A DNA stretch of 64,000 nt from a virus (IMGVR_UViG_3300037721_000031:96001-160000); one strand, 5' to 3'; counted from the stretch's first letter, positions 1,227 through 36,249 are shown. Translations and numbers: made by a program. The notes: generated by a model from the sequence alone, not told the origin.

Positions 1227-2081
1227 ATGACTACTACTAAATTTCAGACGGCCATAGAGGGCCACATGGAACTTGCCAGCCGTATCGATAGAAGAATCGC
1301 TATGGAAGCAGGCTTCCTTTCTAATCTCAGTACTACGGTTCGTGAAGCTATTCCGTCTATGATGGCTTCCATCAATGGTGCTTTAAGTTCTATGAAGTTT
1401 TTCTCAAATGAGAAAAATTCTATTAATGGAAGTTCTCTTTTTTTGAACTTGCTAGAAAAAAGCAACTTTGTAGAAATCAGTGATTTAAAGGTATATACGC
1501 CTGAGGGGTTTGTAGGAAATCTTCCCGCATACGCCGACGTTTTGAAGTCATGCAGTGTGCATGCTAGTGAAGTAATAAATGATGTACTGGTACCCTATAA
1601 TACATTTCTGTCGCAGCTTCTTAGCTCAAACAGTGCACGTTTATCTAGCTTTGGCCAGTTAAACTACATGTTGAAGAAAGACGAACAACGTGAGAAACTT
1701 AATGAGCTTGTTGGTAGCTTTATCGTACCAGGTTCTACTCAAGTAAAGCAATCAATTGGTAAAGCCTTTAATAGAAACTCTGAATGGAGAGACATGCTGA
1801 TTAGTCAGAATGAATCTACTCAGGCTATCAATAAGGTAGATGTTAAGACAGTGTTATCAACTGTAGATGAGTGTGTTCAATTAATTGACACTATCAGGAC
1901 AGCATCTAACGCTGGTGAATTGGATGGTTTATCAGGACCAATGCTCAAGCAGCTTTCTAACACCACGTTAACAGCTGCTAATGAAGTAACCTTTTACTCG
2001 ATAACATCGTATCGAGTAAGTGTGTTGAGTAAAGCAATTAATGACTCAATTGAGGCTCTTACTAAAGAACTAAAGAAGTGA
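1227..2081 (+). CDS. Putative virion head/internal protein
   Basis: ORF track 1218..2081; ATG at 1227 preferred. The N-terminal region has A-x-E motifs (AIE, AME) like phiKZ prohead protease sites. Core-gene neighbourhood. Confidence 0.45.
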   Translation: MTTTKFQTAIEGHMELASRIDRRIAMEAGFLSNLSTTVREAIPSMMASINGALSSMKFFSNEKNSINGSSLFLNLLEKSNFVEISDLKVYTPEGFVGNLPAYADVLKSCSVHASEVINDVLVPYNTFLSQLLSSNSARLSSFGQLNYMLKKDEQREKLNELVGSFIVPGSTQVKQSIGKAFNRNSEWRDMLISQNESTQAINKVDVKTVLSTVDECVQLIDTIRTASNAGELDGLSGPMLKQLSNTTLTAANEVTFYSITSYRVSVLSKAINDSIEALTKELKK

Positions 2082-2088
2082 GTAAAAT

Positions 2089-2124
2089 CATAAATGACCA
2101 GGGGAACTCCCCTGGTCATTTATG
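2089..2124. terminator. Bidirectional hairpin terminator
   Basis: 16-bp perfect stem CATAAATGACCAGGGG/CCCCTGGTCATTTATG, loop AACT, between convergent genes. Confidence 0.75.
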
Positions 2125-2141
2125 CCAGAAAGTAAATGACA

Positions 2142-4616
2142 TTACGATATTACTACATGTTCATTAAACTTGTCAGGCACAACAATATTAGATGCGCTAA
2201 GTACGCAACACTCTGTATTTGAGAGGGCTGTAAATTGTACGTAATCATGCGATATCATGTATAGTTGTGAAAATGCGCAGTAGTCTAGTAGGTACTTAAT
2301 TAGATTCACAGTACACGCTTTATGCTCAGCATCCATTCTCTGACCTAATTCGTCAGCAAATAACGGTGCGGAAGATAGATCTAAGTACTGCATGGCTACG
2401 ACTTTAAATGCAAGATCTATAATCTCACACATACCGCCGCTACCTTTAGAGATATCCGGCACAGGTGAATTACCATCACCAACAATCATTGGAAACTTAT
2501 AATCAAGTTCTGTATTACCAGATTCAGAATCTAAGCTGCAGTCCTGTACTTCTAATCGGTATGTCCAGATCTTACTTATCAGTAAGTTCATCTTGCGAAT
2601 AAAACTTCTGATGAATCCGAGCAATCCCTCAGCAATCAGTCCGTCATGAGGAGACAGACATTCCACTAATGTACTTAAAGCTTTCTCTTCTGATTCTAAA
2701 CGTTCTATATTTACTTCAATATCAGCAATGATACCGCGTTGTACGTTTATTTCATTTAAAGCATTTTGCTTCTGAGCTAGCTGGATTTGTAATTCATTCA
2801 AGCATTTATTAATGAATTCATTACGCATTGCTCGCAATAAGTCTACGGTATTATGTTCTAGCTTCTCAACAGACGACGACAGCATCTCACTTAATTTTAT
2901 AATCTCTTGTGTACGCAGTAGCTCTTGTTGCTTGTCTTGTAATAAGCGTTGTTTTTCACGTATAGATCGTGCTAAGCCGCCGAGTTCAACTTCTATTACT
3001 TTTAAAGCATCACTCATTTTACCAACGTCAGCATTATTAGCCTTTATAGCGAGATCAATCAGTGCGTTGTTATTTATCTGTTCAGTATTTAACTTTATGC
3101 ACTTTATGTCATATTCTAAATCTGTCTTAAGCTTTTCCATGTCTCGATATACCTGCATTGGGGAGGTATAGATTGTATCTTTAACAATACTCCAGAATGG
3201 ATTAAGAACAGGTATAGTGCGAACACAACGCATGTATTCGCGCATTAGTTCACCATACTTAACATTTTCCTCTATAGCTTTTTGAATCTCTAGTAGCTTT
3301 TTATTATGCTCTTCTAGAAACTTAGTACCTGAGTTAATGTCGTGATTTATTTTGTTTAGGTTATCTAGAGTATAGCCTGGTATCCACCTGTGTCTGCAAT
3401 TAGGACATTCAGTAGACTCACCATTACGTAAATCTTCCATATGTTTAAGTTGATGCTGTAGATGACTAACTGCGGATACTGCTCGCTGAATCTTATCTTT
3501 TAATTGATATTCTTTATCTTTAAGTGCCTGTAATGACTCAAAGCTCAGACTGCGATCTTCGTTAGGGGATATCTCATGAGTGATTCGCTCTACTAGGTCA
3601 AATATAGATAAGAGGGCTGCTTGAGCTGTAGAGGGATCATCAAAAACCAAATTAAGTTGTTTACGGCTTTGTATTTCATTTCTTTGAATGATTAACTCAT
3701 TATACTTACACCGCAAGTCATCCAGCCCAGAAATATCAGCTTTACTGTACGTGTCGTATTTTTCTTTTAACTCACCGTATGTTTTAAAGCGTATACTAGA
3801 TTCGGTATTGGTTCTTGTAATATCATGCTTGAGTTCATCAATGTAAGTACTTAACTCATCCAGTTTATTTGTTGTCTTTCCTTTTGTTAAAGAAATGACT
3901 CTATTACTAGATTTTAGTATTTCAGATTCAAGTCGGTTCTGATCAGCAATTATTTCAGATACACTAGATTTATCTTCTTTACGTGAATTGTATAGTAAAT
4001 TGATTTCTCTTAACAGGTTCTCTATATCCTGCTGTATTCGATTTGTTTCTTCAGAACTGATGATCTTAGCTGTTTCAACTACTAAACGCCTACGAGCTAG
4101 TTTTAGAGCACCTGATGTATCCCTACTGCGCTCGGAGACTTTATTATAAACGCCGATCGCATAATCATAACTAGTTTCACATAGCTCAGTAAACCATTTA
4201 CGACGAAGTGCCGGACTCATTGAAGAGAATTTCTCAACACCAGTAAGTAAGTCATGAATATCTTGCCTGTACCCGAAGATAGTTTTAACTAAGTCTTTTT
4301 GTACAGTGACAGTTCCACCAGTATTGAGCTCTTCTATTCCATTCTTAATGATAGAGTGTTTTTGAGTAGGATGGAACTTACTTGTCAAAGTGTACTCATC
4401 GTTCAGATGAGTAATCGATATGGCTTTATACCCATCTTTTTCATAATGGATAGGTGTAGCTGGGAGTGGAGATAGCTCACTCACAAGTGAAGACTTACCG
4501 CTGCCATTAGTTCCAAGTATGAGCTGAATACGTTCGGTTGGTGTAATCTTAAAGAAATTAATGTGATTCAAAGCCATGCGCTTGAATCCTTTTAATTCGA
4601 TCCAGTTTATTCTCAC
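2142..4616 (-). CDS. sbcC: SbcC/Rad50-like SMC ATPase
   Basis: Walker A GTNGSGKS, long coiled coil with central CPNC zinc hook, signature SKGSGG, Walker B LFADELG, H-loop ISH. Confidence 0.9.
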   Translation of the reverse strand: MRINWIELKGFKRMALNHINFFKITPTERIQLILGTNGSGKSSLVSELSPLPATPIHYEKDGYKAISITHLNDEYTLTSKFHPTQKHSIIKNGIEELNTGGTVTVQKDLVKTIFGYRQDIHDLLTGVEKFSSMSPALRRKWFTELCETSYDYAIGVYNKVSERSRDTSGALKLARRRLVVETAKIISSEETNRIQQDIENLLREINLLYNSRKEDKSSVSEIIADQNRLESEILKSSNRVISLTKGKTTNKLDELSTYIDELKHDITRTNTESSIRFKTYGELKEKYDTYSKADISGLDDLRCKYNELIIQRNEIQSRKQLNLVFDDPSTAQAALLSIFDLVERITHEISPNEDRSLSFESLQALKDKEYQLKDKIQRAVSAVSHLQHQLKHMEDLRNGESTECPNCRHRWIPGYTLDNLNKINHDINSGTKFLEEHNKKLLEIQKAIEENVKYGELMREYMRCVRTIPVLNPFWSIVKDTIYTSPMQVYRDMEKLKTDLEYDIKCIKLNTEQINNNALIDLAIKANNADVGKMSDALKVIEVELGGLARSIREKQRLLQDKQQELLRTQEIIKLSEMLSSSVEKLEHNTVDLLRAMRNEFINKCLNELQIQLAQKQNALNEINVQRGIIADIEVNIERLESEEKALSTLVECLSPHDGLIAEGLLGFIRSFIRKMNLLISKIWTYRLEVQDCSLDSESGNTELDYKFPMIVGDGNSPVPDISKGSGGMCEIIDLAFKVVAMQYLDLSSAPLFADELGQRMDAEHKACTVNLIKYLLDYCAFSQLYMISHDYVQFTALSNTECCVLSASNIVVPDKFNEHVVIS

Positions 4617-4692
4617 TTTAAGTTTCCTTCTTGTGATTTATTATAATGCATGAGACCCAGTACAATATAACGTAACAAAGTAGAATCTTACC

Positions 4693-5694
4693 ATGAGTAT
4701 AACTCCACCAACCACAGGCAGTAAGTTGCACATTTACGGTCTTGGAATTGTTGCCGCTAATAAAGAACTTCATTCTAAATTCATTGAAGTGGTACCTATA
4801 GAAGCAACCCCAATGTTAGATGGTGAAATTACAGATAACATGGAGACAATCGTAACAAAAGGAAAAGATGCTAGCGGTAGTGTGTATGAGAATAGCGTCA
4901 ACACTACTGCCTCAATTCAGGCTGAGTGGCTCCCTATAGGCGGGTCTAATAGGGCTACTGCTCCAGATGTGCGCCGTGGTGAGCATGTAGTCTTATATAA
5001 GTTCGGAGATACTGATAAGTATTATTGGGTTACTCTTATCTATGACATGAAGTTGCGTAAGTTAGAAACAGCTATCTGGGTTTTTAGTAATACTAGAAAT
5101 GAAGATGTCGATGGTACTGCAGATACAACTTACTTTTTAGAAATATCTACGCACAGGAAATTAGTACATCTCCACACCAGTAAATCAGATGGTGAACCGT
5201 TTGTGTACGATATTCAGCTTAACACCAAAGATGGAGTTTTTACGTTTCAAGACGATATTGGAAATTATATTCAGTTAGATTCTAAGAATGTTAGAATAGA
5301 AGCCAAGAATGCTGATGGTTCGTGGATCGATATGAATCGGCGCGTCATCAACATGTACGCCCCTGAAGATATCAATCTCCGTGCTGATAATAATATCAAT
5401 ATCAGTGCCGGTAATAGTATTAATTCTGACGCTGGATCATCTATAAATGATAAGACTCCAGTGATAACTACAGAAGCAGATAGTACAACTAACACTGTAC
5501 CTGTAACTACATTCACAGGTCAAGTAATAATTGGTGGTGGAATGGCTGTGAGTGGTGGTAGTGGAGCCAGCGCTACCGTTCAAGGGACTGTTGAAGTTAC
5601 AGGCGGTGATGTCATCGTTGAAGGTATTAGTTTCCTTCCGCATGGTCACATTGAACAAGGTGACGGTAACCGTGTTGGTCCGCCAATCGCTTAA
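4693..5694 (+). CDS. Baseplate central spike (gp5/VgrG-like; phiKZ-type)
   Basis: OB-fold-like N-terminus (EWLPIGGSNRATAPDVRRGEHV), beta-helix-like I/N/S repeats, C-terminal HxH apex (PHGH). Divergent from sbcC, as I recall in phiKZ-like phages. Confidence 0.7.
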   Translation: MSITPPTTGSKLHIYGLGIVAANKELHSKFIEVVPIEATPMLDGEITDNMETIVTKGKDASGSVYENSVNTTASIQAEWLPIGGSNRATAPDVRRGEHVVLYKFGDTDKYYWVTLIYDMKLRKLETAIWVFSNTRNEDVDGTADTTYFLEISTHRKLVHLHTSKSDGEPFVYDIQLNTKDGVFTFQDDIGNYIQLDSKNVRIEAKNADGSWIDMNRRVINMYAPEDINLRADNNINISAGNSINSDAGSSINDKTPVITTEADSTTNTVPVTTFTGQVIIGGGMAVSGGSGASATVQGTVEVTGGDVIVEGISFLPHGHIEQGDGNRVGPPIA

Positions 5695-5778: not shown

Positions 5779-6282
5779 TTAGAGATACGAGTCTCTTTCA
5801 TAATAGACTTCCGGAGAGCCAGAATCAGGCACGAGTATGAAATACTTAACAATAACATAATCACCATCGCTAACAGAAGCACTTCCTTTAATTCTATTAA
5901 AACTAGGAGATGCACCATTTACAGTAGTTATTTGTGGAACAGTAGTCGAGCCTGAAGGATTATAAATCAATGTAAACGGTACTAATACCTTATTGCTTGA
6001 TGATGGACCAACATATGGTACATTCGTAAGAACGACAGCCGTAATGTTTCCATAGCCAGTCATTCGTACAATATTACCCTGACGATAGTCGTGAGTCAAT
6101 GTAGATGGATCAGGTAACGTTACATCCTTACTTACATTACCAGCAGAATATGTATAGAAACCACCAGGAAATGCTGCAGCTACGCTGTTTGTCCCTTTAT
6201 TTAACTTATTCCCAACTGCAGTGGTTGTATTGGAAGCTGCATTAGAAATGGCAGCTTGAAGAGCAGTATAACTTATTGTCAC
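5779..6282 (-). CDS. Hypothetical protein, possibly virion/tail-associated
   Basis: 167-aa ORF, S/T/G/V-rich, co-oriented with two upstream probable structural genes. Confidence 0.4.
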   Translation of the reverse strand: MTISYTALQAAISNAASNTTTAVGNKLNKGTNSVAAAFPGGFYTYSAGNVSKDVTLPDPSTLTHDYRQGNIVRMTGYGNITAVVLTNVPYVGPSSSNKVLVPFTLIYNPSGSTTVPQITTVNGASPSFNRIKGSASVSDGDYVIVKYFILVPDSGSPEVYYERDSYL

Positions 6283-8817: not shown

Positions 8818-9309
8818 ATGAATACCCGTTATGTTTTACTTGCTGTAGTAGTTCAATTTATTTGCTTATCAAGTTGTTCTATTATGGTGGAGTATCCGCC
8901 TAAATCTAAAAACTCTATCCCATTATTACTGGAGGCTAGTGAAAAAGAAACTGCGACAGCGGCTAACCGACCATCAGAAGATGGTCGGAAGCAATTTGAT
9001 ACATCTATTGCAGCTATTACAGATAAAATTAATAAGCTAGAACAACGGAATGAATCACTAAATAAATCTATTGTGAAAGTGACACTTTGTTCCGCATTCG
9101 TACCACCAGTAATGCCTGAGGCACCACGAGTAGACTTTTCAAAGTTAAGGGCCATACCAAGTAATGATCATACAGCGGTGAAAAATCTATTAATAGATAA
9201 CATACAGGCAATGAATGATCATGCTAAGAAAGTAGAGGATTCTTTGAAATTAGCCATGATCATTCATCGTAGAACATGTGGTGTTCGTGATGTTATCAAT
9301 AAGAAATAA
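8818..9309 (+). CDS. Putative lipoprotein
   Basis: Signal peptide with lipobox LSSC, coiled coil, Pro-rich stretch; abuts the upstream stop codon. Confidence 0.55.
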   Translation: MNTRYVLLAVVVQFICLSSCSIMVEYPPKSKNSIPLLLEASEKETATAANRPSEDGRKQFDTSIAAITDKINKLEQRNESLNKSIVKVTLCSAFVPPVMPEAPRVDFSKLRAIPSNDHTAVKNLLIDNIQAMNDHAKKVEDSLKLAMIIHRRTCGVRDVINKK

Positions 9310-9405
9310 CACACGTTGCTGATGATGTGTTCTATAGATATTAGTTAGCTCTATATCTGTTAAAGAGAATAATCATTAAATACACTATTCGCAAGAGGAC
9401 TTTAA

Positions 9406-10941
9406 ATGAATGCTGATTCTATTATTAAAGGAATGGTACTGTACTGCGACGGTGGAACAAGACCCAACCCAGGATTTGGTGGATATGGAATTCACGGATA
9501 CATTTACAGCGCTGTAAGTCCAAGTAAAGGCATTGGCCGTAACTTCATCACTACGTCTCAAGGGTATTTAGAGCGTGGTAAGGATAATGAAGTAATTACT
9601 GTAAGTCAAACTGACTCTGTAGAAAAGTATTTGAATGACTCAGAATCTGTCTTAGTGACTCCTGTAACCTATGTCGATATTACAGGATCTATTCCTGGGA
9701 CAGCGACTAACAATACAGCTGAAGTCATGGCTATGACACAGGCATTACAATACGCATCAAAGCAACCTGATATTAAGTTTCTTCAGATTTTTACAGATTC
9801 TGAGTACACTAAAAATGGTGTAAATGAATGGGTAGACAATTGGGCCCGTAACAATTGGTTTAAATCTGACGGTAACCCAGTAGTTAATAAAGAATTGTGG
9901 ATGAGTTTGAAGACGATTCGTGACATCGTACTAGCCACAGGCATCTCTGTAAGTGTTGAGTGGATTCGTGGTCACGATGGCGCTGTTGGTAACGAGAAAG
10001 CAGACATGCTTGCGTCGATGGGTGTCTTTGATGCTCAGAGAAGTGTTATTGGGGAAACTGTAAAAGAAACAGAAGCAGAAGGTTACTGGAAGAATACGGT
10101 AACGCGTCATCCGTTTATTACTCATCGCAGGTGTTACTTTAGTTCACAATCTGAAATCGCGCCAGGTGTTTATCACTTAGGAGACCACGGTAAAGATGAC
10201 GAACTTTTGGGTAAGAAATCTAGTGAGGGGTGTTACTCGGTGGTTCAGTTGTTGGAACCTGACAGTGTTTTAGATTTGATTCGCAGATATCAAGCTAGTC
10301 TTACAGGATATTCTGATTCTATTTTTGCCATGCATTTGGATCAAATCTATAATGCGGATCTCTACAAGTCTCTCATGCTTTTTGGAGAGAAGGGTCTGGA
10401 ACCTCCAAGTGGATATCGTTTAGATATTAAACATGCGGATAAGACACCCCTTACACGAGAATTTAAGCCGGCACGGTTAGCATCACGCTCAATACAAGAA
10501 CTGTTAGAGTTAGAAATCTTACTGGAAAAATTTAAAACAAACTCTCCAGATTTGATAGTCAACGATATTACAGAAAACTTCTACGATACAGTTGAGAAAA
10601 AGATTCCCCCTAAGAAGGGTAAAAGTGAAGGTACTGTAGAGGTTAGTACAAAATTAAAGAGTGATATCGTTGTTGGTTGCAGTGAGATAACTGTGAAGTG
10701 TAAGCTGGTATCATCAGGGCAAGATATCTCTGAAGATTTGAAACTAACACTAGGGATAGATGTTTTAGATAGAAACGCTCTTAAACGGTTAGAAACGTTA
10801 TCTCCTAAGATATATGTAATAACTTGGAGCGTAAGTGATGTAGCCTATCGCTATGCTACAATTGTCAAGACATGTGACGACATTGGTATATGGTGCGGAG
10901 TATATAGTAACTTACGTATACTCGGAGCGGTAACTAAGTAA
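9406..10941 (+). CDS. rnhA: Ribonuclease HI with long C-terminal extension (phiKZ-type)
   Basis: YCDGG..PNPG.GG, TNNTAEVMA, FTDSEY, V.N.ELW, WIRGH.G..GNEKAD: full RNase H catalytic set. Confidence 0.9.
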   Translation: MNADSIIKGMVLYCDGGTRPNPGFGGYGIHGYIYSAVSPSKGIGRNFITTSQGYLERGKDNEVITVSQTDSVEKYLNDSESVLVTPVTYVDITGSIPGTATNNTAEVMAMTQALQYASKQPDIKFLQIFTDSEYTKNGVNEWVDNWARNNWFKSDGNPVVNKELWMSLKTIRDIVLATGISVSVEWIRGHDGAVGNEKADMLASMGVFDAQRSVIGETVKETEAEGYWKNTVTRHPFITHRRCYFSSQSEIAPGVYHLGDHGKDDELLGKKSSEGCYSVVQLLEPDSVLDLIRRYQASLTGYSDSIFAMHLDQIYNADLYKSLMLFGEKGLEPPSGYRLDIKHADKTPLTREFKPARLASRSIQELLELEILLEKFKTNSPDLIVNDITENFYDTVEKKIPPKKGKSEGTVEVSTKLKSDIVVGCSEITVKCKLVSSGQDISEDLKLTLGIDVLDRNALKRLETLSPKIYVITWSVSDVAYRYATIVKTCDDIGIWCGVYSNLRILGAVTK

Positions 10942-25307: not shown

Positions 25308-26394
25308 CTTCCTGACTTCTGTAGAGCGCGAAAGCGCCACTGGTTATCATCTCAGCTTAAACCTGGAATTACTACGCGGATGCCAGTTTAGCTGTAAGGG
25401 TTGTTTCGTAGATAAGTATGGTTCAGATCCAATGACTGACGAGCGAGGTGCGCAGCTTCTATCTTGGGTTACCAGTGCGCAAGAAGATGGTGGTTATCTA
25501 CCTACGGTAATATTTATCGGACCTACTGACTTCTTATCCTCTGGGAATACCATCGACGTACTGCGAGATCCACGTATTCAGCAAGTTGTCAGACGTTTTA
25601 AAAGACTATCTCTACAAACTACTTGTTTAGATATCAGTACAGCTCCAGAGATTGCTAAAGTGTTACGTGAACACTACAGTCATATGGAACTCGAGGTTAA
25701 CTTCTTAATGGAGCCAGAGCATGTTCTAACAGAGAAGTACCTTCGTACTGTTAAAGAGAATAGAGACAGTCTGTATGAGATAATTGACTGGCACATTCCC
25801 GTAAAAAGCTTCTGTATTATGAACGTCTATGAATACGAGAATGCAAAGAAAGATGACGTCATTAAGCTATTAAATGACTACAAAGAAATGCATTTGCGTA
25901 TCAAGGATATGTTTGATACTACAATTGACTTTAACTTCTCGATGTCAAGAAAACACAATCAAAACAAGTCATCCGAAGTTAAAGAAGCAATCATCAGAGT
26001 AACTAAGATGTTTGATAAAAGTGTTAATCACGATACATCTCAGTTTATTCGTTTCTCGTTTGGAAAATTAACTGATAGTCTGATCGAGAAACATTTTAAC
26101 TTTCTTAATGGTAAGTTTTACGTGTCACCATTACTTTACGATCGTTATGTAGCTTTTGTGCCAGAGTTGCAAATACCGTTTGTAAACTTTACTGTAGCTG
26201 AGTCTGAAGCATTTGAAGAACAGCTACAGCTAGAGCAATATCAGAATGCCGGCCAAAAAGACGAATGTGGTAGTTGTCGTTATCTTGGGTCGTGTACGGA
26301 TAGAAATATTCTTAAAGTTATGGATATCTATTCTATCAAGCACTGCATCATAGCGCGAGACGCCTTGGACAGTATTAACGTACGGCCAAATTAA
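25255..26394 (+). CDS. Radical SAM protein 3 (GPTD subtype)
   Basis: GCQFSCKGC; IGPTDFLS in place of GGEP; C-terminal CGSCRYLGSC...HC. ATG 25255 or 25258 after GAAGGA. Confidence 0.8.
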   Translation: MMSEVSQLTVPKHLKTDNFLTSVERESATGYHLSLNLELLRGCQFSCKGCFVDKYGSDPMTDERGAQLLSWVTSAQEDGGYLPTVIFIGPTDFLSSGNTIDVLRDPRIQQVVRRFKRLSLQTTCLDISTAPEIAKVLREHYSHMELEVNFLMEPEHVLTEKYLRTVKENRDSLYEIIDWHIPVKSFCIMNVYEYENAKKDDVIKLLNDYKEMHLRIKDMFDTTIDFNFSMSRKHNQNKSSEVKEAIIRVTKMFDKSVNHDTSQFIRFSFGKLTDSLIEKHFNFLNGKFYVSPLLYDRYVAFVPELQIPFVNFTVAESEAFEEQLQLEQYQNAGQKDECGSCRYLGSCTDRNILKVMDIYSIKHCIIARDALDSINVRPN

Positions 26395-26404
26395 CCTAGT
26401 AACA

Positions 26405-26444
26405 GCATAAGAGAGACTAGAGCGTACGCTCTAGTCTCTTGTGC
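26405..26444 (+). terminator. Hairpin inside the rSAM operon (terminator or processing/stabilising stem)
   Basis: 13-bp stem AGAGACTAGAGCG/CGCTCTAGTCTCT between rSAM3 and rSAM4. Confidence 0.55.
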
Positions 26445-26469
26445 CATAATTTAATAAAAGGTACTTGAC

Positions 26470-27531
26470 ATGCAAAATGCTGAAGAACAGTTACTTAAAC
26501 AGTTACTCGCTTCCAAAGTACAAGATTCCTCAGAAATAGAACACCATTTATTCGAATTGTGCAATCTTAATTGCTCCTTCTGCGGACAGGATCATGATTC
26601 GAAAGAAGGTATTGATACAATCTTAGAGAAAGCTCATCAGACTGTGGAGTTCATGCGTAACTCTCCATTGAAGAGCCATACAGTCAATGTGATGGGTGGC
26701 GAGATCTTTAATGATTTGGTACCAGATTCTGTATTTGATGACTATTATGCTTTTTATAAAGTTATTAATGACTATGCAGTTTCAAACGACCTTACAGTTA
26801 GAATTAACTTTGTAACCAATTTAATATTTTCTAAGAATACTTCTAGTGTTCAGAAATTACTTGAGATATGTGGTGACAATGTTTGGATTTCTACGTCTTA
26901 CGACTTTGCTGGTAGGGGGCTTGATATAAATCGCATGATGATGTTCAAACGTAATCTAGAGATCTTTAAGCCTCGTATCGGAGTAGTTGGTTTTGTACTG
27001 GCTAAGCCATCTATTCGTAAGTTGATTGCTGATAAAGATAAGTTCTTTAAAGAAGTTCTATACGCTAACTACCCGTTGTACTTTGATTGGTATGTACCTG
27101 AAAATAGTGCAGATAAGATGATGCCTTCAGAGCAAGAGATGCTTGACGGTCTTCTATTCGTTGCTGATCGTTATCCTAAGATAGAGCCAGTTAGAAGCAT
27201 GTTAGAAAATGAAGAAAATAAGATGACATGCTTTTCACTTAATAAGACAACTATCTTACCAGATGGTCGTGAAGTTAAGTGTAGGTATATGGAGTATGAA
27301 GCTGAACAGTTTGAGACTCCAATCGATTATTCTACTAATAGTGGAATCATCAATGCGCATCTCGAACGTAATGAATGTTTTAGTTGCGAGTGGTATAAAA
27401 GGTGTCCATTAGTATGCTTCGTACAATCAGACTGGACAAAAAGAGAAAGACTACCTGTCTGTTTTATGAAAACATTCTTTAACACAGCAGTCGGAAAAAA
27501 TAATGCCACCAACGATACAGATGAAAGATAA
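26470..27531 (+). CDS. Radical SAM/SPASM protein 4
   Basis: CNLNCSFC, MGGEIF, C-terminal CFSCEWYKRCPLVC...C. Confidence 0.88.
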   Translation: MQNAEEQLLKQLLASKVQDSSEIEHHLFELCNLNCSFCGQDHDSKEGIDTILEKAHQTVEFMRNSPLKSHTVNVMGGEIFNDLVPDSVFDDYYAFYKVINDYAVSNDLTVRINFVTNLIFSKNTSSVQKLLEICGDNVWISTSYDFAGRGLDINRMMMFKRNLEIFKPRIGVVGFVLAKPSIRKLIADKDKFFKEVLYANYPLYFDWYVPENSADKMMPSEQEMLDGLLFVADRYPKIEPVRSMLENEENKMTCFSLNKTTILPDGREVKCRYMEYEAEQFETPIDYSTNSGIINAHLERNECFSCEWYKRCPLVCFVQSDWTKRERLPVCFMKTFFNTAVGKNNATNDTDER

Positions 27532-28270
27532 AAGATTCGGTAGATTAACAGTTATTGATAATGGTACAAGGTTACCTAACCGTACTCGTGTTTATGAGTG
27601 TCTATGTGAGTGCGGAGTTGTTAAAAAAGTAGACGGTGGTAATCTGAGGCATGGAGTAATAAAAAGTTGCGGATGCTTACGTCGTGAGATTGTTAGTCAA
27701 AGCAATAACAATCTCACTCACGGGATGCGCTATACACCGGAATATCAAGCTTGGATTAACATGCGTAGACGATGTGATGCGGGTCCAGATACGAGGGAGT
27801 ATGCGTATTACGGTGCTAAAGGGATTACTGTTTGCGAAAGATGGCTGAACAGCTTCGAAGCTTTTTATGAAGATATGGGTCCTAGACCATCGCCAGACCA
27901 TTCTATCGATAGAAGAGAAAATGATAAAGGCTACTACAAAAATAATTGTAGATGGGCTACCTGGGAAGAGCAGCAGAATAACAGAAGTAATAATTCAGTT
28001 AATACTGTTGATGGAGTTGTATATTCCTCTATTGCAAAGCTGGCTCGTGAAAAAAATATATCAGAAGCTACTGTAAAAGCAAGAATCTATAAACAAAATA
28101 TGTCTGTAGAAGAAGCTGTTTCTAAAGGAACAAATCGCTATTCACTTATGGTAAACGGTGAAAGTAAATCTGTTAATGAGTTAAGTGAAATAACAAATAA
28201 AACATCTGCTACAATTCGATATCATCTTAGAAGAGGTAGGACTGTAGAAGACATACTTAAAGATAGGTAG
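27503..28270 (+). mobile_element. Free-standing HNH homing endonuclease gene
   Basis: FGRLTVI...YECLCECG...KSCGC...HGM..TPEY.AW.NMRRRC...YG.KGITVC.RW..FEAFY.DMG.RP....SIDR..ND.GY...NCRWAT..EQ.NN, plus C-terminal HTH-like repeats; overlaps the rSAM4 3' end by 29 nt. Confidence 0.85.
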
Positions 28271-28387
28271 CTTAGATGTTTCGTGAATGCAGATTGGACA
28301 AAGCTAGAGAGACTACCAACTTGCTTTTTAAAGACATTTTTTAATGAAACAGTTGGAAAGAAGAATCATGTTCAGACGACTACTTGA
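28271..28387 (+). pseudogene. Displaced original 3' end of rSAM4
   Basis: Translates LRCFVNADWTKLERLPTCFLKTFFNETVGKKNHVQTTT*, 23/32 aa identical to the rSAM4 C-terminus encoded from 27409. No start codon. Confidence 0.85.
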
Positions 28388-28526
28388 TGTGTTTATGAAA
28401 GTTACCGGTAATAGTCAATATGGCTGGTGGGCTAAGTATTTATGGGAGGATAAATATGTTTGGTCAGCCACTAAAGAGGCAGCTATACTTGGCTGTCGTC
28501 AAAGAGCAATGGAGAGTAAGAAATGA
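28368..28526 (+). CDS. Small hypothetical protein
   Basis: ORF track 28344..28526; in-frame ATG 28368 after GGAAAG preferred; ATGA-type overlap with the next gene. Confidence 0.45.
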   Translation: MFRRLLDVFMKVTGNSQYGWWAKYLWEDKYVWSATKEAAILGCRQRAMESKK

Positions 28527-28849
28527 TTAAAACATTTACTCTGTTCTTTATAACTGCTTACTTTGAGATTCTTGGCTGTTACTCAGTATTGCAATATGTC
28601 AAAACATTTCGGCAAAGTGGCTCCTCTGCCATAGCTCTTATTACTGCAATTATATCTCTCAGTATATTTGCGTGGCTACTTACATTACACCCAACAGAAT
28701 CTGGGAGAGTGTATGCTGCTTATGGCGGCGTATATGTACTTACATCTCTTTTATGGTTGTGGCTTATTGATGGAGTTCATCCGACTGTATCGGATATCTC
28801 AGGAGTAGTGTTAATATTACTAGGCTCACTATTGATAATGAAGCAATAA
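28523..28849 (+). CDS. ynfA: YnfA/UPF0060 family small membrane protein (SMR-like)
   Basis: AYFEILGCY...FAWLLTLHPTESGRVYAAYGGVYVLTSLLWLWLIDG..PT..DISG; four TM helices, 108 aa. Confidence 0.85.
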   Translation: MIKTFTLFFITAYFEILGCYSVLQYVKTFRQSGSSAIALITAIISLSIFAWLLTLHPTESGRVYAAYGGVYVLTSLLWLWLIDGVHPTVSDISGVVLILLGSLLIMKQ

Positions 28850-28867
28850 CCTCTCTGGAGAACTATC

Positions 28868-29113
28868 TTGACTTTTGAAGAACTGTTAGAATTGCGTAGA
28901 ACACAAGGTCCAGAAGCTGCAAATGAAGTTTTAAAGACAATGTCTCTAGAACAGATGAGGGACATTACCATTGAAGCTAATAAACAAATTATAAATTTGG
29001 CTAACTTATTTGTTGCGACTTATATGGATTATGCTGTTGAAGCGAACCTACCATCTGCACAAAAAGCAAAACAAGATGTAGATTTTCTCATTAAAAAGGT
29101 AAATGGGAAATGA
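28868..29113 (+). CDS. Hypothetical protein
   Basis: 81-aa ORF, GGAG RBS, ATGA overlap with the NUDIX gene. Confidence 0.5.
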   Translation: MTFEELLELRRTQGPEAANEVLKTMSLEQMRDITIEANKQIINLANLFVATYMDYAVEANLPSAQKAKQDVDFLIKKVNGK

Positions 29114-35165: not shown

Positions 35166-35181
35166 ATGTAAATACAATCAA

Positions 35182-35847
35182 TTACTTATCGAGAGTAGGA
35201 TTTTTCTTAAGAAAGATGGTCTCATACAACTCAGAAATCTTCTTCTTTTGTTCAGGATCCTGAGTAGTATCATAAATCAATTCAGAAGTCTTAAGTGGTA
35301 ATTCAGGAATATCTACAGGTACATCCTTGAACTCTAAGTCAATTTTAACCCACTCGTAGTAGGTGCCGTCTTCTTTAAGGTATACGTCTACTTCGAATAC
35401 TAATTCAGTCCCGTTAATAGGAAAATGGAAACGATGTTTACACATTCCATTTTCAGCTAAGAGCTTAAACAAGTCAAACATGTCTTTACTAGCAGGAAGA
35501 GGAACTTCTGCACGATCATCAGCTTTACGTTCTGCTTTAACAGTAATCACATATTGAACAGAATCTTCGTTAGTATCTGTAAGTTCGAAACCTTTATCAG
35601 TCTTGGTTAAAGGTATGATCTTGCGGACACGCATAGTGCCCTTGGCTGCATTCTTATCAGTCTTAGGTAGTTTGATCTGCCATTGCTCTTGCGAGTCTAC
35701 AGAGACCGCATTATTCAGTTCACTTAGATCTGAGAGCTTAGCATAAATAACACGCTCACGTTCACGAAAGAGCTTACCATCTTGGACATCTTCTTCCATG
35801 CCGATCTCTAACGACATAATAGCTAATAATTGATTTTTCTTCGACAT
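35182..35847 (-). CDS. CYTH-like (triphosphate tunnel) domain protein
   Basis: ERER.IY, QEQWQI, MRVRK, YVITVK, K.RF.FP, FEVDVY, WVKIDLE pattern typical of the CYTH fold. Confidence 0.6.
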   Translation of the reverse strand: MSKKNQLLAIMSLEIGMEEDVQDGKLFRERERVIYAKLSDLSELNNAVSVDSQEQWQIKLPKTDKNAAKGTMRVRKIIPLTKTDKGFELTDTNEDSVQYVITVKAERKADDRAEVPLPASKDMFDLFKLLAENGMCKHRFHFPINGTELVFEVDVYLKEDGTYYEWVKIDLEFKDVPVDIPELPLKTSELIYDTTQDPEQKKKISELYETIFLKKNPTLDK

Positions 35848-35913
35848 AATCGTAAGTCCTAATTTAAAAGTAATACTAGAAGCACTATCACATATAAAGT
35901 AGATTGCGACATA

Positions 35914-35949
35914 AAGAACTACTGACCCATTATAGAGTCAGTAGTTCTT
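35914..35949 (-). terminator. Hairpin
   Basis: 13-bp stem AAGAACTACTGAC/GTCAGTAGTTCTT. Confidence 0.55.
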
Positions 35950-35970
35950 ATAGTCTTAAAACACATCTAC

Positions 35971-36249
35971 TCATACTGGCGCTAATATGATTTTTATAAT
36001 TTCAGATAATGTCTGAAGGAATAGACCAATAGTACTTTCTTTTATAGAAGACTTACTAGTCACAGACAAATACAAAAATGTTAACACAACAAGAGTAGTG
36101 AGTAATGCTAATGTCAATATCAGTACTTTGACAATCCAGTGCTTCAGGCGTCTTACTTCAGCCTTTTCATTAGCATCAGCTACATTACACATTACTTCTT
36201 TATCGTTTTTAGCGTTTTTACGTATGGATGTTATCTTTAGCTTATTCAT
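35971..36249 (-). CDS. Small membrane protein
   Basis: 92 aa with long hydrophobic helix WIVKVLILTLALLTTLVVLTFLYLSV. Confidence 0.5.
   Translation of the reverse strand: MNKLKITSIRKNAKNDKEVMCNVADANEKAEVRRLKHWIVKVLILTLALLTTLVVLTFLYLSVTSKSSIKESTIGLFLQTLSEIIKIILAPV

Follow-up and report, generated by a model that had tools for sequence, protein, structure and literature searches.

Introduction

The closest described counterparts of the element analysed here are fungal mitochondrial mORFs with a foreign C-terminus, found in atp6 of Allomyces macrogynus and in atp6, atp9, cox2 and nad3 of Glomus sp. (PMC3630166). For the Glomus genes, native ends show 91–98% identity versus 64–81% for the inserted ends (PMC3630166). 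Among phages, the free-standing homing endonuclease genes (HEGs) seg and mob of T4 are known for 'intronless homing' (PMC2988022, PMC2790892, PMC2330249). In mixed infections, T4-type HEGs spread when the genome lacking the HEG is broken, with co-conversion of flanking markers, and the HEG+ allele is protected through differences in its target sequence (PMC2988022, PMC2790892, PMC2330249).

The literature that we searched, which covered few subscription journals, yielded organelle cases, but for phages no description of an endonuclease that brings a substitute gene end with it. Work by Friedrich et al. in 2007 reportedly showed that in Aeromonas phage Aeh1 the insertion of mobE divides nrdA into two pieces that remain functional.

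Here we describe a locus in a jumbo phage at which an HNH-type HEG appears to travel with a recoded substitute for the final 40 codons of the gene that it targets, a reading to which we assign a probability of roughly 0.87. The stretch analysed (the window, 64,000 nucleotides) comprises bases 96001–160000 of a 266.6-kb virus record, IMGVR_UViG_3300037721_000031, that is ~98% complete. Judged by its sequence, the phage is distantly related to the Chiangmaivirus jumbo phages RSL2, RSF1 and FLC6/8, with which it has a radical-SAM gene cluster in common; this eight-gene cluster is conserved in jumbo phages.

Results

An HNH gene lies between two 3′ ends of one radical SAM gene

The gene concerned, rSAM4, matches phrog_1802 (radical SAM) at E 5e-48 and the Pfam Radical_SAM model weakly. 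The features of the locus, all on the plus strand and numbered from the first base of the window, are as follows.

26470–27531, plus strand: rSAM4, a radical SAM/SPASM-type gene, from the ORF layout
26470–27408, plus strand: body of rSAM4, codons 1–313, the resident part of the hybrid gene and its putative left homology arm
27376–27417, plus strand: codons of the cluster motif C-x2-C-x5-C-x3-C, from ten alleles and three stranded copies lined up at the nucleotide level
27409–28270, plus strand: putative mobile cassette of 862 nt, replacement gene end plus HNH gene, delimited by an insert of equal length and junction in the contig pair L037/L039
27409–27531, plus strand: copy 1, the part of the cassette that serves as the 3′ end of rSAM4 now in use, 40 codons and a stop, continuing the reading frame of the body
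27503–28270 (255 aa), or from 27521 (249 aa), plus strand: HNH-type homing endonuclease gene, from phrog_374 and orthologs at the site
28271–28387, plus strand: copy 2, the stranded 3′ end of rSAM4, 38 codons plus stop, start-less, from sequence comparison and a position-specific scoring matrix (PSSM)
28368–28526, plus strand: 52-aa gene of unassigned function, whose start overlaps the stranded end

In the CX2CX5CX3C motif the cassette junction falls within x3, with the last two Cys codons on either side of it, and copy 1 supplies the last Cys of the motif plus a later Cys. The triplets at 27406–27414 encode P-L-V in the window, where HEG-free alleles show Q/S/G-F-R. Copy 1 ends in TAA, and its extended tail contains the HNH ribosome-binding site, GGAAAAA, at 27493–27499. 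The HNH ORF and copy 2 are both in frame +1 relative to rSAM4, and because the cassette is 862 nt long (3n+1) they are separated only by the in-frame TAG that ends the HNH ORF (28268–28270). In the window and in contig L037 alike, this TAG coincides with the 'x' codon of C-x-F-R-C; no such in-frame TAG separates the HNH ORF from the stranded end in contig L035. An intein was also considered and is ruled out by the frames and stops (TAA of copy 1; TAG before copy 2). A readthrough fusion was likewise rejected, the TAG being a consequence of the cassette length and absent from L035.

An earlier note on this DNA had reported a start-less second rSAM4 end directly after the HNH stop at 28270, with many conserved codons differing synonymously, and codon-by-codon comparison bears out both points. 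Copies 1 and 2 are identical at 23 of 32 residues and at 66/96 nucleotides; 13 of the 23 conserved codons differ by synonymous changes only, and 9 codons differ non-synonymously. In a flank-to-flank comparison the two ends were matched by tblastx at E 5e-15 and by blastn with 73% identity over 97 nt. Since 13 of 23 conserved codons differ synonymously, the copies come from two diverged rSAM4 genes and not from a local duplication; by this codon pattern, they diverged while both were coding. The HNH gene is flanked by direct repeats, as it would be had the end of rSAM4 been duplicated in tandem, the copies diverging in place and the HNH gene landing between them by chance, but the synonymous differences are those of two selected genes rather than of a dead copy in decay.

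Comparison with contig L011, the closest relative of the window phage, shows 12 synonymous-only and 2 non-synonymous codon differences over 26 codons of copy 1, and 107 synonymous-only and 27 non-synonymous codons for the rSAM4 body. By these codon counts copy 1 is shown to be under purifying selection, as fits a translated sequence.

The same note had equated the position of the HNH ATG in copy 1 with that of the next gene's ATG in the displaced copy. The correspondence is close, as the HNH ATG at 27503 lies 94 nt into copy 1 and the ATG at 28368 lies 97 nt into copy 2, both behind a GGAAA-type Shine-Dalgarno sequence, but the conserved HNH Met is the one at 27521. GGAAAAA precedes the 27503 ATG by 4–10 nt, with AAGGAG and GGGAAAG as equivalents in L035 and L038, respectively, and the Shine-Dalgarno sequences of the HNH gene and of the 52-aa gene are both encoded by V-G-K codons of the rSAM4 tail. 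Nonetheless, the Met at 27521 is the sole one conserved across all four orthologous HNH genes, and the product listed in the record is 249 aa long (98% of the query covered), which we read as a start at 27521; the HNH start codon is therefore ambiguous. The last part of copy 2 carries the Shine-Dalgarno sequence (28355–28363) and the ATG of the 52-aa gene, so that the next gene still has its ribosome-binding site and ATG context in the displaced end; the start of this gene overlaps the stranded end just as it would overlap an intact rSAM4 end.

The inserted gene encodes a likely HNH-type nuclease

The protein matches four PHROG families named 'HNH endonuclease' (phrog_374, phrog_3377, phrog_2081 and phrog_953) at E 2e-63 to 1e-14, phrog_374 being the best at E 2e-63; these names are annotations, not assays. 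No match was obtained to the Pfam HNH models or NCBIfam, profile and single-sequence searches of PDB sequences returned no nuclease relative, and Pfam helix-turn-helix matches were weak. An AlphaFold model built from 35 homologs (pLDDT 90.6) predicts an N-terminal Cys4 beta domain (~1–63), a nuclease core (~66–165) and two C-terminal helix-turn-helix modules, a modular architecture resembling that of an endonuclease. The predicted core is helical plus beta-beta-alpha, with modelled strands at 133–137 and 149–153 followed by a helix at 154–159; across the 35 homologs H133 is conserved in at least 90%, and N148 and N160 are invariant. The ORF in the window is intact and retains every family-invariant residue.

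PacI, a rare-cutting HNH restriction endonuclease (PDB 3m7k / 3ldy), was the top fold match in two all-against-all searches, one with the whole model and one with the core alone, with modest scores (Z 6.4 over 90 residues and Z 5.7 over 79; 14–15% identity) that lie under the trusted level of the tool. PacI lacks the Cys4 N-domain and the helix-turn-helix tail predicted for the window protein. I-HmuI aligned to the model over 32 columns at an rmsd of 1.5 Å, but with a Foldseek E of 5.8. Foldseek searches of the PDB with the whole protein and with the core domain gave no match at E≤0.001; further HNH nucleases appear only in non-significant rows (E above 1), and the HNH fold matches are weak, with Z below 8. 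Overall, the protein is likely an HNH-type nuclease.

Nine paralogs of this family are present in the 266.6-kb genome, eight of them on the minus strand. A search for flank duplications within 700 nt of the other eight paralogs found none; the window locus alone has one. In a phylogenetic tree, the HNH proteins of the rSAM4 site cluster apart from the other paralogs of this genome and from the HNH of L011, with moderate support (79/17).

The stranded end is of the native type

The homolog set for rSAM4 consisted of the best 120 of 139 matches, and the motif census drew on 121 homologs listed, 117 of them HEG-free. The motif C-x-[FML]-R-C-F-V is present in 115 of these 117, and among the homologs listed Arg occupies the second junction position in 115/117 HEG-free ends (98%), mostly as F-R. 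All HNH-linked or cassette-borne ends have LV or LG in place of F-R, and the close homologs with L-V or L-G among those listed are HNH-adjacent only: the window, P0003 (L011), P0004, P0020 (L038), P0033 (L035) and L037. The alleles linked to the HNH lineage of the window (window, L035, L037 and L038) all have L-V at this place. The earlier prediction that HNH-free relatives would end like 28271–28387 held as to the type of end, both in this census and in the HNH-free L014, L015, L039, RSL2 and FLC8, whose ends are of the F-R type. The rSAM4 bodies of L014, L015 and L039 are 85%, 81% and 80% identical to that of the window, and the tail closest to copy 2 is that of L015.

We scored the ends with a PSSM built from the 117 HEG-free ends (leave-one-out mean, 75.1). 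Stranded ends score as ordinary ones (window, 75.7; L037, 77.9; L035, 67.2), and the in-use cassette ends score 62, 68, 46 and 45, within the lowest 5–16%. By the same measure the 5′ two thirds of copy 2, which has no known coding role, is undecayed. Taken together, these comparisons show a hybrid gene with a foreign end in use and its native end stranded behind the HNH gene.

A before/after pair in a sister lineage

Contigs L037 (HNH+) and L039 (HNH-free) have an identical gene order; identity between them is 98.6% in the left flank (3960 nt compared) and 98.4% in the right flank (4002 nt). L037 differs by an insert of exactly 862 nt (3928–4789), equal in length to the window cassette and located at the same codon. 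The stranded end of L037 is 95.7% identical in nucleotides to the working end of L039 (27/31 codons the same and 1 non-synonymous; at the protein level, 25 of the first 26 residues), whereas the in-use end of L037 shows only 55.9% nucleotide identity to it. In the left flank, 80 identical nucleotides are followed by three synonymous changes (K, R and C codons) before the junction; because these changes lie beside it, the foreign DNA starts ~10 nt to the left of the junction, and this ~10-nt stretch looks like a short co-conversion tract.

The pair is a presence/absence polymorphism at a precise site between near-identical genomes, and shows recent mobility of a sister cassette, not of the window's own lineage. 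With its 862-nt insert at the same codon, it supports the claim of the earlier note that the HNH gene brought a replacement rSAM4 end and left the old one stranded. It also argues against the tandem duplication considered above, since the in-use end of L037 is foreign while the rest of the sequence is ~98.5% identical to L039, and since the 862-nt unit and its junction recur in two lineages; we regard local duplication as highly improbable.

Other relatives at the site, and the question of splicing

The three closest relatives of the window HNH (55, 53 and 49% identity) are in contigs L037, L038 and L035/L036. All three genes are on the plus strand and overlap the 3′ end of an rSAM4 homolog, the bodies of which are 61–80% identical to that of the window. 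In two of the three phages a stranded end directly follows the HNH gene, in L035 with 16 extra bases at the junction. L038 has no stranded end; DHFR comes directly after the HNH gene, as DHFR follows rSAM4 in RSL2. The genes downstream of rSAM4 differ among the phages compared. Identity among the in-use ends of the four cassettes is not clearly above that of the host gene bodies, and a single travelling end is therefore not demonstrated.

The closest relative of the window phage, L011/L012/L013, has an rSAM4 that is 91% identical in amino acids and an LV-type end, without the HNH lineage of the window. Its end is LV-type up to F-F-N-T and then continues into a different short tail and a hairpin, and a minus-strand HNH gene of another sub-lineage is in place, 59% identical to the window-genome paralog at 177–926 and 44% to the cassette HNH. 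The earlier note had held that relatives lacking the HNH but carrying the upstream version of the end would speak against its reading; L011 does carry the LV end, but it is not HEG-free, given this other HNH gene. Before the ortholog of the 52-aa gene (6071–6229), L011 retains a 12-codon remnant of the downstream version, to which the 3′ part of copy 2 is orthologous (25/27 nt). A search of L011 for traces of the plus-strand HNH found none, the only matches being the conserved nuclease core of its own minus-strand HNH and the remnant, 35 nt long. Either the cassette is older than the split between the window phage and L011 and its HNH gene was replaced later, or the LV end spread without the HNH gene and a second HEG then arrived 25 codons on. 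For the window itself, the direction of the event is suggested by analogy and by the L011 remnant.

These layouts bear on whether the HNH ORF might lie within a self-splicing intron, with ~27408 joined to 28271 and the downstream copy serving as exon 2. Such a joint would preserve the frame and yield a C-terminus of normal appearance, and the stranded copy is undecayed, as an exon would be. Against this, cmscan of 26400–28900 found no group I, group II or other Rfam family (E≤10), and copy 1 forms a full gene end, in frame and closed by a stop of its own, that bears the mark of purifying selection. Moreover, as L038 has no downstream copy and L011 retains only 12 codons of it, neither has a complete one, and the upstream version must be the working end in both. 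No alternative joint was seen in the contigs aligned to the stretch, which are weak evidence: DNA run X1, probably from the source sample, gave a single collinear contig in which an alternative joint is absent, and the single contig of RNA-library run X2 covers 27585–27850, wholly inside the HNH gene, and so is silent on a hybrid transcript. With selection on copy 1, no Rfam family and the L038 and L011 layouts, splicing is not needed and is unlikely; we consider an intron extremely improbable.

In the collections searched we found no near-identical HNH-free partner of the window phage and no HNH ortholog above 55% identity. The phages collection held only ~67%-identical Chiangmaivirus matches to the window, IMG/VR no HNH above 49% and no rSAM4 above 65% identity, and the metagenome contigs no HNH above 53%. 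Two further candidate cases of end replacement, L072 and L090, were seen in other genes.

Another account of the window copy is that it began as described here but is now fixed, immobile or domesticated, the stranded end being the scar of a one-off illegitimate join, kept solely for the ribosome-binding site of the next gene and without a role as a homology arm. The LV-type end is common to the window and L011 at ordinary divergence (78% nucleotide identity, versus 83% for the body), which suggests old residence; of the stranded end, L011 keeps just the stretch in front of the 52-aa gene; and the lack of HNH orthologs above 55% identity in the collections searched would also fit. In contrast, the HNH ORF is intact with all family-invariant residues, the stranded copy shows no decay over its 5′ two thirds, and L037/L039 attest to recent mobility of the sister cassette. 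We judge this account improbable.

Discussion

We propose that during co-infection the enzyme would cut or nick an HNH-free rSAM4 in the conserved SPASM-motif DNA encoding C-(Q)-F-R-C-F-V, recognition probably involving the highly conserved DNA around TGT-CAA-TTT-CGT-TGT-TT in naive alleles. Repair of the break would use the HNH+ genome as template, with homology provided on the left by the rSAM4 body and on the right by the stranded native end and the sequence behind it, so that copy 2 would act as the right homology arm. The 862-nt unit would thereby be copied in and the recipient's old end pushed behind the HNH stop. If the recipient's end becomes the new stranded end, as proposed, this accounts for the resemblance of stranded ends to local HNH-free ends. 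In-frame reading of the end carried by the cassette keeps rSAM4 whole. We presume immunity of the HNH+ allele on two grounds: Q-F-R is changed to (P/G)-L-V in copy 1, altering most of the 9 bases, and the left half of the site in copy 2 is replaced by the 3′ end of the HNH gene. We infer cleavage, its exact position and immunity, together with present-day mobility of the window's own copy.

Like the mORFs, the cassette has its endonuclease ORF in the 3′ part of a conserved gene. A diverged replacement C-terminus, in frame with the gene, comes before this ORF, and behind it lies a duplicate of the native C-terminus, near-identical to that of an ORF-less relative; the values for L037/L039 (95.7%, versus 55.9% for the in-use end) are comparable to those for Glomus. 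The window itself shows the LV signature, a normal PSSM score for copy 2 and the 25/27-nt match to the L011 remnant, in keeping with an element of the mORF type. It differs from the mORFs in residing in a jumbo phage instead of an organelle, in having a radical SAM/SPASM gene as its target, and in encoding a nuclease that is HNH-type rather than LAGLIDADG or GIY-YIG, with cleavage by the window enzyme a prediction. The window endonuclease also has its own start and overlaps the gene tail in another frame, and is not a fusion.

Like T4 seg and mob, the window HEG is phage-borne and without an intron or intein. T4-type elements are intergenic and have homology in both neighbouring genes, whereas the window cassette carries a replacement end and has both of its presumed arms in one gene. 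L038, with its HNH gene between rSAM4 and DHFR and no stranded copy, resembles the classical T4-type layout. The likeness to Aeh1 mobE is that of an HNH-type HEG inside a phage enzyme gene, with no splicing element and with enzyme function retained; the split halves of Aeh1 nrdA reportedly assemble, whereas rSAM4 remains in one piece since a spare end is supplied.

A classical free-standing HEG would need the same downstream gene in donor and recipient, as with DHFR in L038. Because the genes downstream of rSAM4 differ among these phages, having both arms within rSAM4 would allow a cassette a wider spread. More tentatively, and at somewhat less than even odds, the spare end may make a free-standing HEG, otherwise dependent on its context, into a self-contained element within a gene, with the stranded end kept both as right arm and as translation start of the next gene; this could be a general route that, unlike introns and inteins, needs no splicing, and on which this HNH family has drawn repeatedly in phages.

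The locus offers a base-pair view of how a homing endonuclease can be housed inside an intact phage enzyme gene by means of a recoded spare end, with no intron or intein. Start-less pseudo-copies of gene ends behind HNH genes become readable in annotation as insertion footprints, and the junction points to the likely recognition site (the DNA for C-Q-F-R-C-F-V) of an uncharacterised HNH lineage. The element also marks a boundary of mosaic exchange within the eight-gene radical-SAM cluster. If our reading is true, homing imposes a substitution on an Arg that is 98% conserved and adjoins an Fe-S ligand, so that a selfish element may alter the enzyme that houses it.

The stranded rSAM4 end and the HNH reading frame

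In the window (28268-28387) and in L037 (4787-4885), a relative with an orthologous HNH gene at the rSAM4 end, the stranded gene end lies in frame with the HNH ORF and is separated from it solely by a TAG codon, because the cassette length of 862 nt is 3n+1. L035, a further relative with the orthologous gene, is unlike both in this frame relation. A 266-nt contig from run X2, a marine metatranscriptome, is 98.5% identical to the HNH gene interior (window 27585-27850), with DNA carry-over possible.

A different HNH gene at the rSAM4 end of the closest relatives

Locus in the closest relatives
L011 4939-6078: rSAM4 end and downstream region; likewise in L012 and L013
L011 5152-5931, minus strand: HNH gene different from that of the window, occupying the same locus (also in L012 and L013)
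L011 about 6040-6078: 12 codons left over from the native end of rSAM4, in overlap with the 52-aa gene's ATG

The L011 rSAM4 carries a new 10-codon tail beyond F-F-N-T, and a perfect hairpin separates it from the convergent HNH gene. Because the new tail resembles those of distant rSAM4 homologs (e.g. P0047), the L011 arrangement may represent a second, nested end-replacement event.

Similar architectures at other target genes

Loci in two contigs with other HNH genes
L072 1606-2668: HNH gene and repeated end of an 89-aa gene
L090 1632-2614: HNH gene between diverged copies of a gene start

The L072 HNH gene (1974-2576), of the same broad family, lies behind the 89-aa gene (1606-1875). After it, starting at 2573, the final 24-31 or so codons of the 89-aa gene recur in diverged form. 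The layout is that of the rSAM4 cassette, at an unrelated target gene. The L090 HNH gene (1959-2507, plus strand) is flanked by two diverged 5′-end copies of a gene on the minus strand (ORFs 1632-1871 and 2465-2614). The arrangement may be a version of the same device in which the gene start is replaced.

HNH paralogs

Eight further paralogs of the window HNH family are scattered across the 266.6-kb genome.

HNH paralogs elsewhere in the genome
177-926, minus
9179-9802, minus
25980-26729, minus
35172-35987, minus
64713-65156, minus
176794-177231, minus
197718-198476, minus
220163-220753, minus

Duplicated flanks were found at none of these eight. Several have a shorter ORF, of 164-210 aa, perhaps a sign of decay. 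In the contig of P0004, an 87%-identical relative (genes 3099-3887 and 5128-5304), a 262-aa HNH homolog is encoded on the minus strand between rSAM3 and rSAM4; a second probably lies downstream of rSAM4, whose junction residues are T-L-G.

A mosaic boundary downstream of rSAM4

Within the UPF0060/YnfA family, a small membrane protein gene (window 28523-28849; Pfam E 1e-27) sits in the phage radical-SAM cluster and is retained, at variable positions, in L014 and L015 (HNH-free) and L038 (with the orthologous HNH gene). When window 26470-28526 was compared with L011 4001-6229, nucleotide identity was 82.7% for rSAM4 and fell to 61% just past the HNH site, in the 52-aa gene. In relatives, the genes that follow rSAM4 (52-aa gene, UPF0060/YnfA, 81-aa gene, NUDIX, DHFR) are reordered or missing. 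The putative homing endonuclease gene therefore lies at a boundary of mosaic exchange.
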